Positions 54,445 to 58,318 of a stretch of 64,000 bases of DNA are shown in pieces. The notes under the pieces are model-generated. The model did not search any database. It was given only the letters and a program-made list of their open reading frames with translations, and was not told where the DNA came from. The stretch is from sequence record PV292302.1, one strand, 5' to 3'. Positions within the stretch are counted from its first letter, which is position 1. Every line of letters starts with the position of its first letter. Made by a program: the position numbers and the translations under genes. The stretch comes from Escherichia phage Jgk1.

Positions 54445-54468
54445 GCCCCTCCTAAGAGGGGCATAAAT
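54445..54468. terminator. bidirectional terminator hairpin between convergent genes
   Basis: stem GCCCCTC/GAGGGGC with 4-nt loop; moderate T-runs on both strands. Confidence 0.4.
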
Positions 54469-56268
54469 TTAGCTAATCTGGTACAAGGTTGCTGAACCGT
54501 CATAGATGCACTTCCACAGCGTATGGTGATACTGTGGTATAGGATAATCTACGGAACCTTTAGGGATTAGGTTATTAGAAGCAAACTTAACAACCCCATC
54601 GGCTGTATTAGACGCTATCATTAAATCCCTACCATACGGGGAACCATACACATGAAAAATGCTGACAGCAGCTCCGGTAATTCGGAGATTTGCAGCAGGG
54701 TGCAACTTAGTGAGGTCAATATCTCCAGCAGCAGTAACATCAACAAAGAATGGCTTACCACCGTCAAAACCATTAACTGTAGCACCAGAATCCAGATAGA
54801 TGTTAACACGGGAATCAATAGGTATCTCATTACCTGAACAATGTGCACCACCTACAATCAGACCACCAGCGGTACGTCTTCCATTGGAATCGTTCTCATA
54901 GAACCCAAACTTATTATCTGTTACCGAACCATTAATCACTTGGATACCCCAGAGATTAGTGGAATCTACTGTAGCATCAATACCATAGGTGCAGTTAGTA
55001 ACCTTACCACCTTGAACAACCAACCCATAATTAGATGGGTCACAACGAATGAACTTAACCCCGTTAAAGTCAATGTCTGAACCAGATAGGTATGCAGGTT
55101 TGATAGTGCCTTCTGGAGCTAGGAATACATCCCCGGTAAAACTCATAACACTACCAGTACCAGTAATGAAATACGGTACATCCTTACGAGGAATCCCCAA
55201 CTTACTAGCCAGGTAAGCAACATCCGTAGGAATGAATACGTTGTTACTAAAGAACACCTCATGACTTGCGCCCAAATCAATAGGAGCCTTGGTATAGTAA
55301 AAACGGTCAGCTAGGGTGTTATCACCAACAGGTCTAGCAACCTCAAAGTGACAGTGATTAAAGAACACGAACCATGGGTTACCAAATTTAAGCATGTAGG
55401 GATTAAACTCAAAATGACAACCAGTGAAGTATACGTAGTTACTATCCTGAATCATGGTCACAGCAGGGTTAGTAACATTACCGCTTTGTAGGAAAGAACA
55501 GTTAGTAAAATAGGTATCCTGAATGTACCCAATTTCTAGTGCCTGGTTCGGGAAGAATTGTATGTTAACTCCCTCAACAATACCCATCCAACCAATACCA
55601 TTAAGATACAAACCCACATCACACTGACCATCAACCCCCCAAATAGCAAAATCACGTAAGGTAAGTCCAAAGCAGTAAGCCGAACCAGAATCAATAGATA
55701 ACATTCGACCAGTTGCTACATGGGAGTTAAATACTGTACCTCGTACAGGGGAAGGGGAATGTACAGAAGCTACAGTCCTCAAACCTTGAGCACCCTCACC
55801 ATACATGCACAGAGCGTAATCCACCTGAATAGATTTATTAATTTCATACTTACCAGATGGAGAAAATACAGCATAACCCACCTTAGCAGCATTGATTGCT
55901 GCCTGCGTACCTGCATAATCTTGGCTCTGAGTTAAGCTAGTTACAAATGGATATACCATTTGTGCAGCAGATAGGGTGCTAAACTTTTCACTTAATGGGT
56001 GTAGTTCACCATCCCCTACAGCACCGAAGTCCTTGATATTAATTACATCCGCCAGTTTAAGCTGGAGACTACGTTCAATTGATGCAGCCAATGGGGACAT
56101 ATGCCCAATGTTGGAAGTACCATACTTAGATGCCAGCGTTGCTTTATACTCAGCAAGTGAAGTTAGTGGTGGATACGGTGCAGGCAACAAATCAACAGTA
56201 ATGTTACCTGGTGAATAGGTTAACTTACCGTCACCGACTGTATTGATGTAAACGTTGGCCGGTAACAC
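54469..56268 (-). CDS. tailspike protein, C-terminal segment (pectate-lyase-like beta-helix), split off by a tandem duplication
   Basis: 599-aa ORF with GAVGDGELHPL...AINAAKVGYAVFSPSGKYEINKSIQV; its first about 330 aa are encoded by repeat copy 1. Confidence 0.5.
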   Translation of the reverse strand: MLPANVYINTVGDGKLTYSPGNITVDLLPAPYPPLTSLAEYKATLASKYGTSNIGHMSPLAASIERSLQLKLADVINIKDFGAVGDGELHPLSEKFSTLSAAQMVYPFVTSLTQSQDYAGTQAAINAAKVGYAVFSPSGKYEINKSIQVDYALCMYGEGAQGLRTVASVHSPSPVRGTVFNSHVATGRMLSIDSGSAYCFGLTLRDFAIWGVDGQCDVGLYLNGIGWMGIVEGVNIQFFPNQALEIGYIQDTYFTNCSFLQSGNVTNPAVTMIQDSNYVYFTGCHFEFNPYMLKFGNPWFVFFNHCHFEVARPVGDNTLADRFYYTKAPIDLGASHEVFFSNNVFIPTDVAYLASKLGIPRKDVPYFITGTGSVMSFTGDVFLAPEGTIKPAYLSGSDIDFNGVKFIRCDPSNYGLVVQGGKVTNCTYGIDATVDSTNLWGIQVINGSVTDNKFGFYENDSNGRRTAGGLIVGGAHCSGNEIPIDSRVNIYLDSGATVNGFDGGKPFFVDVTAAGDIDLTKLHPAANLRITGAAVSIFHVYGSPYGRDLMIASNTADGVVKFASNNLIPKGSVDYPIPQYHHTLWKCIYDGSATLYQIS

Positions 56269-56280
56269 AGGTAATCCATA
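55281..56280. repeat. tandem direct repeat, copy 1 (1000 bp)
   Basis: identical to 56281-57280; ORF-track ORFs 55720-55935 and 55976-56218 recur exactly at +1000. Confidence 0.9.
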
Positions 56281-58318
56281 TAGGAGCCTTGGTATAGTAA
56301 AAACGGTCAGCTAGGGTGTTATCACCAACAGGTCTAGCAACCTCAAAGTGACAGTGATTAAAGAACACGAACCATGGGTTACCAAATTTAAGCATGTAGG
56401 GATTAAACTCAAAATGACAACCAGTGAAGTATACGTAGTTACTATCCTGAATCATGGTCACAGCAGGGTTAGTAACATTACCGCTTTGTAGGAAAGAACA
56501 GTTAGTAAAATAGGTATCCTGAATGTACCCAATTTCTAGTGCCTGGTTCGGGAAGAATTGTATGTTAACTCCCTCAACAATACCCATCCAACCAATACCA
56601 TTAAGATACAAACCCACATCACACTGACCATCAACCCCCCAAATAGCAAAATCACGTAAGGTAAGTCCAAAGCAGTAAGCCGAACCAGAATCAATAGATA
56701 ACATTCGACCAGTTGCTACATGGGAGTTAAATACTGTACCTCGTACAGGGGAAGGGGAATGTACAGAAGCTACAGTCCTCAAACCTTGAGCACCCTCACC
56801 ATACATGCACAGAGCGTAATCCACCTGAATAGATTTATTAATTTCATACTTACCAGATGGAGAAAATACAGCATAACCCACCTTAGCAGCATTGATTGCT
56901 GCCTGCGTACCTGCATAATCTTGGCTCTGAGTTAAGCTAGTTACAAATGGATATACCATTTGTGCAGCAGATAGGGTGCTAAACTTTTCACTTAATGGGT
57001 GTAGTTCACCATCCCCTACAGCACCGAAGTCCTTGATATTAATTACATCCGCCAGTTTAAGCTGGAGACTACGTTCAATTGATGCAGCCAATGGGGACAT
57101 ATGCCCAATGTTGGAAGTACCATACTTAGATGCCAGCGTTGCTTTATACTCAGCAAGTGAAGTTAGTGGTGGATACGGTGCAGGCAACAAATCAACAGTA
57201 ATGTTACCTGGTGAATAGGTTAACTTACCGTCACCGACTGTATTGATGTAAACGTTGGCCGGTAACACAGGTAATCCATAAGACTTCTCAGCAACCACAT
57301 CGTAGACAACTTTCATACCATTAAGATACTGAGTAGTGTTAGAACTAAGAATTACTTCAGAATCCTTAACATTAACTGAGCGTGCTATTTCCTGGATGGT
57401 ACGGTCAGACATGATGAAAGTAATAGACTCACCACCAACCTGCACAACCAATTGGTCATTGGTAGCCAATGGCTCCGTCAGTAAAATACGCTGATTAGGG
57501 GCATCTACTGTATAAGATTGGGCAGCCAAACCTTGTACATATCTCAGTCCATTCTTAAAAATAGCCGGAATAGACTGGAAGGTATAAGGAATAGCAATAA
57601 CCTGCTCCCCACCTACAGCATAACCCCCATTGTATAGCCAGTTAACCTGAACCCAATCCGTAATATTAGGGTTGCTTGGTACTGCTGGAGTACCAGCCAG
57701 GAGCAGGATAACCTCATCATCAGCTACTAACGGAGTATCCAAGGTAACAGTCAGAGTAGTAGCATCATAAGTAAAACCTAACGTGTTAATGTAGGTTTCG
57801 TGGTTCTTGATGATGTAAGCAACACCAACAGTTTGAGCGGGAACAGGTATAGTAGTTTCGCCCCCAATAGCCGAACCATTGTTATAGATATAAGGAATGT
57901 AAGAGGAACCATTACCAGAGCCAATGTTTTCCTCAAATGTTCCCGGTACATTAACCAGTAACCATGAACCAGTGGCAGAGGTGTCGTCTGGGATGATGCC
58001 AGTAGTATCGTCAGCTACATACAGATAATCTTTTACTTGCAGCTTACCTGTATTGTCCTTGTCATACAGTCGAGCATAGGTAGCCTTAACAGTTAAAGCT
58101 TTCAACTCTGCTTCTGACTTAACACCCAAAACCATACCGTATTGGTTCAGGAAGTCGTAGATAGGTTTCAGATTACCAAGATTGCAGTAAACTGTACGAA
58201 CCACGTTATATGCGTTGCCAATCATTTTATCGACCAATGGGTCGTTAGAAGTATTGTCGCAATATGGGCTAGTCCAGTCGTTATTTGCATCGAAAGGAGC
58301 ATGTCCTGTCATTTCCAA
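56231..58318 (-). CDS. tailspike protein, N-terminal segment plus one copy of the duplicated beta-helix block, frame-terminated after the repeat junction
   Basis: 695-aa ORF; the final 16 codons after the 56280/56281 junction are out-of-frame sequence. Confidence 0.5.
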   Translation of the reverse strand: MEMTGHAPFDANNDWTSPYCDNTSNDPLVDKMIGNAYNVVRTVYCNLGNLKPIYDFLNQYGMVLGVKSEAELKALTVKATYARLYDKDNTGKLQVKDYLYVADDTTGIIPDDTSATGSWLLVNVPGTFEENIGSGNGSSYIPYIYNNGSAIGGETTIPVPAQTVGVAYIIKNHETYINTLGFTYDATTLTVTLDTPLVADDEVILLLAGTPAVPSNPNITDWVQVNWLYNGGYAVGGEQVIAIPYTFQSIPAIFKNGLRYVQGLAAQSYTVDAPNQRILLTEPLATNDQLVVQVGGESITFIMSDRTIQEIARSVNVKDSEVILSSNTTQYLNGMKVVYDVVAEKSYGLPVLPANVYINTVGDGKLTYSPGNITVDLLPAPYPPLTSLAEYKATLASKYGTSNIGHMSPLAASIERSLQLKLADVINIKDFGAVGDGELHPLSEKFSTLSAAQMVYPFVTSLTQSQDYAGTQAAINAAKVGYAVFSPSGKYEINKSIQVDYALCMYGEGAQGLRTVASVHSPSPVRGTVFNSHVATGRMLSIDSGSAYCFGLTLRDFAIWGVDGQCDVGLYLNGIGWMGIVEGVNIQFFPNQALEIGYIQDTYFTNCSFLQSGNVTNPAVTMIQDSNYVYFTGCHFEFNPYMLKFGNPWFVFFNHCHFEVARPVGDNTLADRFYYTKAPIWITCVTGQRLHQYSR
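56281..57280. repeat. tandem direct repeat, copy 2 (1000 bp)
   Basis: identical to 55281-56280; flanks diverge at 55271-55280 versus 56271-56280. Confidence 0.9.

Follow-up and report, generated by a model that had tools for sequence, protein, structure and literature searches.

Phages usually bind and cut the surface sugars of their hosts with a right-handed beta-helix, and beta-helix depolymerase tailspikes are textbook proteins. Anchor-XD modules, among them those of G7C gp66 and of CBA120 TSP2 and TSP4, attach tailspikes to the virion and supply the T4 gp10-like XD domains from which branched tailspike complexes are built (PMC11654681, PMC8825819). Two such proteins, Moo19 gp82 and B2 gp49, have been described (PMC11654681). 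Among solved Pseudomonas phage tailspikes, LKA1 gp49 (PDB: 4ru4), an O5 O-antigen lyase, and phi297 gp27/gp61 (PDB: 4ru5) are the best structural matches to the protein described here. LKA1 gp49 and phi297 gp27 carry a beta-barrel insertion domain and a proposed catalytic HxxDxH constellation, which is H494/D497/H499 in gp49 (PMC5701251).

The locus analysed here lies in a window of 64,000 nucleotides (the whole stretch of Escherichia phage Jgk1 DNA that was studied). The window is N4-like: it contains an ORF of 3447 aa, the size of a virion RNA polymerase (vRNAP), and at the nucleotide level it is ~79% identical to Bp4 and PhAPEC5. Taken as a whole, the locus is best explained, with high confidence, as encoding the tailspike with which an N4-like phage (Schitoviridae, G7C/Gamaleyavirus-related) of Salmonella or E. 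coli binds its receptor.

One tailspike gene written as two reading frames

The following features define the gene and its virion-proximal part.

54469..58312, minus strand: whole tailspike locus; one gene, 947 aa with a single repeat copy, two ORFs as written
56231..58312, minus strand: ORF A; encodes the anchor, the linker and the initial part of the beta-helix, with native sequence up to I680 and a stop after 15 further codons out of frame
54469..56268, minus strand: ORF B; residues 351-949, the complete beta-helix and C-terminal domain without the anchor
57110..58312, minus strand: N-terminal virion-anchor and XD (T4 gp10-like) domains, aa 3-403, by homology to solved anchors
54445..54462, minus strand: putative terminator, a GC-rich hairpin and T-run found by pattern match

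The span that the first-pass annotation called a tailspike (54469-58318) holds two ORFs, 56231..58318 (695 aa) and 54469..56268 (599 aa). Deleting one copy of a repeat restores the 949-aa reading that had been proposed, and the product aligns collinearly with intact tailspikes of 934-951 aa from N4-like phages (75-79% identity). Translation probably starts at the ATG at 58312 rather than at the TTG at 58318. This ATG forms an ATGA overlap with the stop codon of the upstream gene and has a GAGG 8 nt upstream, and the homologues begin to align at residue 3 of the reconstructed protein. With this start, the intact protein has 947 aa. The GC-rich hairpin directly after the tailspike stop, between convergent genes, is likely a terminator, judging from its sequence pattern.

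The N-terminal 400 residues bear out the tailspike label, as they match solved anchor domains of Schitoviridae and CBA120 tailspikes; the anchor-XD modules of G7C gp66 and of CBA120 TSP2 and TSP4 are homologous too. In phmmer searches the strongest hits were Moo19 gp82 (PDB: 9d80, aa 1-402, E = 2.8e-133) and B2 gp49 (PDB: 9d83, E = 1e-116), followed by weaker matches to CBA120 TSP2 (PDB: 6w4q, E = 3.9e-23) and to 7rej/7rfo (E = 1e-11). Residues 3-94 match the "60 kDa protein" of 9lc0, and the N-terminal part matches phrog_12242 (E = 4e-219). Anchor and XD homology, together with a slot next to gp68-like and terminase genes, place the protein with the Schitoviridae tailspikes of the G7C gp66 / Moo19 gp82 type. 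The homologous anchor of Moo19 gp82 bears a distal part with esterase activity (PMC11654681), whereas that of Jgk1 bears a pectin-lyase-fold beta-helix. An SGNH esterase tailspike like G7C gp63.1 or the distal part of Moo19 gp82 was ruled out, as the match is limited to the N-terminal 400 residues.

A perfect 1000-bp tandem duplication breaks the gene

Two adjacent copies of a 1000-bp unit lie within the locus.

56280..57279, no strand assigned: duplication copy toward the 5' end of the gene, encoding aa 347-680
55280..56279, no strand assigned: duplication copy toward the 3' end of the gene, identical to 56280-57279 at 1000/1000 bases

The extent of the duplication was determined by direct offset comparison. 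A repeat search recovered a 300-nt piece only, and Tandem Repeats Finder, with its period limit of 500, missed the duplication. The window contains no further repeat of at least 18 nt, and the homology at the duplication junction is 1 bp. As 1000 bp do not make a whole number of codons, ORF A shifts frame after I680, reads ...APIWITCVTGQRLHQYSR across the junction and stops 15 codons on, so that the gene is not intact as written. The duplicated block had been thought to cover exactly the beta-helix domain. This is not the case: the unit spans the end of the anchor, the linker and approximately the first 60% of the helix, which in the AlphaFold2 model continues beyond the block as far as ~aa 830, ahead of a C-terminal domain.

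In our view the duplication most likely arose as an artefact of the sequence and is not biological. The unit is exactly 1000 bp long, the two copies do not differ at any base, the junction homology is just that single base pair, and none of the 13 full-length or module homologues compared has the duplication, all of them being collinear and single-copy. Exact-match look-ups of the neighbouring gp68-like and terminase proteins gave no record in which the duplication could be compared. The alternative is a real event that disrupted the tailspike gene, the genome being defective, mutated very recently or a variant within a subpopulation. The duplication is present in the given sequence, phage genomes do acquire tandem duplications, and contigs of related phages tend to break beside this variable gene (L004), pointing to a naturally heterogeneous region. 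Such an event would carry a heavy cost, however. The frameshift cuts the helix before the C-terminal domain, ORF B is left without an anchor or a ribosome-binding site, and a phage whose sole tailspike gene at the locus is broken should be unable to adsorb. A real duplication appears improbable. So does a combined reading, in which the receptor-binding gene of a single-tailspike phage underwent a very recent genuine 1-kb duplication and, separately, the module may be of a lyase or epimerase type for an acidic polysaccharide instead of an O-antigen hydrolase. If the duplication were true, it would yield an anchored truncated helix and, if translated, an unanchored full helix; it would capture a snapshot of tailspike-module rearrangement or a defective genome kept in a mixed population. 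ORF B as a free, independently expressed depolymerase was ruled out: its apparent start is an internal GTG that lacks a Shine-Dalgarno sequence. Because the duplication breaks the gene, users of the sequence need to repair or re-verify it before annotation or cloning.

The distal half is a pectin-lyase-like beta-helix

The intact protein begins with anchor and XD docking domains (aa 1 to ~400), which a short linker joins to a right-handed parallel beta-helix of pectin-lyase fold (~424-830), and it ends in a small C-terminal beta-sandwich. The distal features are as follows.

56822..57025, minus strand: beta-helix N-terminal cap motif (GAVGDG...SPSGKYEINKSIQV), copy in ORF A, by sequence match
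55822..56025, minus strand: beta-helix N-terminal cap motif, copy in ORF B, by sequence match
54832..56049, minus strand: complete right-handed parallel beta-helix, aa ~424-830, in ORF B; pLDDT > 90 almost throughout, with fold matches
54472..54804, minus strand: C-terminal beta-sandwich-like domain, aa ~839-949; model strands 446-553, pLDDT > 90
55342..55419, minus strand: two CHFE motifs on successive coils (C634-E637, C656-E659); second copy at 56342-56419

The AlphaFold2 model of aa 395-949 (mean pLDDT 90.6, pTM 0.88) contains ~45 short strands in a coil-like succession, with the stacked three-strand coils that characterise the pectin-lyase-like right-handed parallel beta-helix superfamily. 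The beta-helix proposed by the first-pass annotation is thus present in the model, and pectate-lyase-like tailspikes were matched. Foldseek returned 4ru4 and 4ru5 as best matches, and the best matches in BFVD are named "Rhamnogalacturonase A/B/Epimerase-like pectate lyase domain" (TM 0.84-0.87). The full-length monomer model has the same C-terminal fold, and its pLDDT is < 50 across most of aa 1-420. This low N-terminal confidence may stem from a shallow alignment there, from absent partner chains, or from both. LKA1 gp49 suggests by analogy that the C-terminal domain may help the protein to trimerise or to bind sugar (PMC5701251).

At the sequence level, the motif GAVGDGELHPLSEKFSTLSAAQ...AINAAKVGYAVFSPSGKYEINKSIQV is indeed encoded, twice, on the minus strand (57025-56822 and 56025-55822). 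The GxxGDGxTDDT hallmark that it was taken to match is real but not contiguous, as a 28-residue insertion, ELHPLSEKFSTLSAAQMVYPFVTSLTQSQ, separates GDG from DYAGTQAAINAA. Both solved Pseudomonas phage tailspikes, phi297 gp27 and LKA1 gp49, share this insertion. In phmmer searches aa 421-509 align to the N-terminus of phi297 gp27 (E = 2.2e-16) and aa 413-546 to LKA1 gp49 (E = 1.7e-15); the family profile reaches E = 1e-25 against 4ru5 and 3e-22 against 4ru4. By sequence comparison, the match of the cap motif is far beyond chance.

The tailspike shares its fold and N-terminal motif with PF12708 (Pect-lyase_RHGA_epim) and the pectin-lyase-like beta-helix superfamily, and its BFVD relatives bear the family name. 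PF12708 was previously named the pectate lyase superfamily protein family. The motif FGAxGDG...D(D/Y)xAxQxAI...PxGxY appears as KDFGAVGDG / DYAGTQAAINAA / SPSGKYEI at aa 429-493, corresponding to profile positions 2-64. The scores of the 949-aa protein (13.3 bits) and ORF B (14.9 bits) fall short of the gathering threshold of PF12708 (27 bits). The family is matched by 45 of 61 homologues (E <= 0.001, best 1.2e-14), which are 27-86% identical over the whole module. Membership is thus by transitive homology and not by direct test, as the homologues match and the query is sub-threshold.

Likeness to the solved Pseudomonas tailspikes is confined, in sequence, to the first 90-130 residues. The HxxDxH motif is absent from the whole Jgk1 tailspike sequence, and the longest inter-strand stretches in the modelled helix are ~20-27 residues, leaving no room for a beta-barrel insertion. 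Membership among lyases of the LKA1 gp49 type was ruled out on the absence of both the catalytic motif and the insertion domain.

Candidate active site and receptor class

The tailspike should form a homotrimer, by analogy with its solved relatives, in which the lateral groove of each helix would bind a host surface polysaccharide (O-antigen or capsule). The bound polysaccharide would most likely be cleaved, so that the virion could move down towards the outer membrane. Surface conservation is highest over 5-6 central coils (aa 555-675), a block that includes both CHFE glutamates, E637 and E659, which are invariant among the 61 homologues. D556, D567, D601, H635, H657 and R672 are conserved in the central coils of the same set, down to 27-36% identity. 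From this conservation we infer that E637 and E659 are candidate catalytic residues and that the block of central coils is the probable active site.

The helix could instead be an adhesin-like receptor module whose target, a polysaccharide or another surface structure, is bound but not cut, as some of the matched beta-helix proteins are adhesins without known enzyme activity (PfbA). This seems improbable, since polar, acidic and histidine residues in the central coils account for most of the conservation among the 61 homologues, the pattern of an active site, and nearly all tailspike-type matches are proven depolymerases. A cleaving module, which we favour, may differ in chemistry from a glycoside hydrolase of neutral O-antigen: it could conceivably be of the lyase or epimerase type, with a uronic-acid polymer (for example capsule, colanic acid or ECA) as its substrate, though we regard this as the less likely option. 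A literature search on activity or receptor, covering FSL SP-076, SP154 and ORF18 of Geobacillus virus E2, found no experimentally characterised close homologue. FSL SP-076 was isolated on S. Dublin (PMC3728262), but this host gives no specificity for the module because FSL SP-076 has two tailspikes.

Relatives and mobility of the receptor-binding half

The Jgk1 tailspike gene is flanked by a gp68-like adaptor gene and by the lysis cassette, an arrangement shared with FSL SP-076, Bp4 and metagenomic relatives. The closest counterparts in architecture and length are SP076_00305 of Salmonella phage FSL SP-076 (AGF88392.1; Ithacavirus) and metagenomic G7C-like tailspikes of 948-951 aa (P0002, P0003, P0005). 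They are 75-79% identical over the full length and 82-86% identical in the beta-helix half, and they occupy the same slot after the gp68-like adaptor gene. P0005 is from Escherichia phage vB_EcoP_PE007. In these relatives the tailspike gene is intact and a second tailspike comes after it (in L003, a GDSL/SGNH esterase), whereas in the Jgk1 window the gene carries the duplication and the slot holds no second tailspike gene. Neither the region between 54469 and a divergent 213-aa ORF nor the window ORFs of at least 150 aa include a second tailspike ORF; the relatives have genomes of 71-73 kb, and several kb probably lie outside the window. A two-branched complex of the G7C type (gp66 and gp63.1), with a second SGNH/GDSL tailspike docking on XD3, is thus not seen within the window.

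The receptor-binding half is a mobile cassette, found also on tailspikes of Ithacavirus, Kuttervirus and P22-like prophages. Proteins that share 81-86% identity with the C-terminal half are only 59-71% identical, or unrelated, in their N-terminal halves, and the N-termini of the homologues vary between P22 head-binding, T7 tail-fibre and TSP1/gp66 types. Kuttervirus homologues of the module occur in SS3, SS9 and SeKF_64. The tailspike is the host-range determinant of the Jgk1 phage. That N4-like podophages, Kuttervirus myophages and P22-like prophages of several enterobacteria have the receptor-binding cassette in common is useful for host-range prediction or depolymerase engineering.

P22-like prophage tailspikes from E. 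coli, Citrobacter, Hafnia and Morganella have a receptor-binding half that is 50-57% identical over its whole length; they differ in their adaptor, the P22 gp9 head-binding domain (PF09008), and in their temperate carriers. With a particle-binding N-terminus, a beta-helix and a C-terminal domain, the Jgk1 protein has the modularity of the P22, Sf6, HK620, CBA120 and LKA1 tailspike depolymerases. It brings nothing conceptually new and is a new, probable member of this well-known type of beta-helix depolymerase tailspike.

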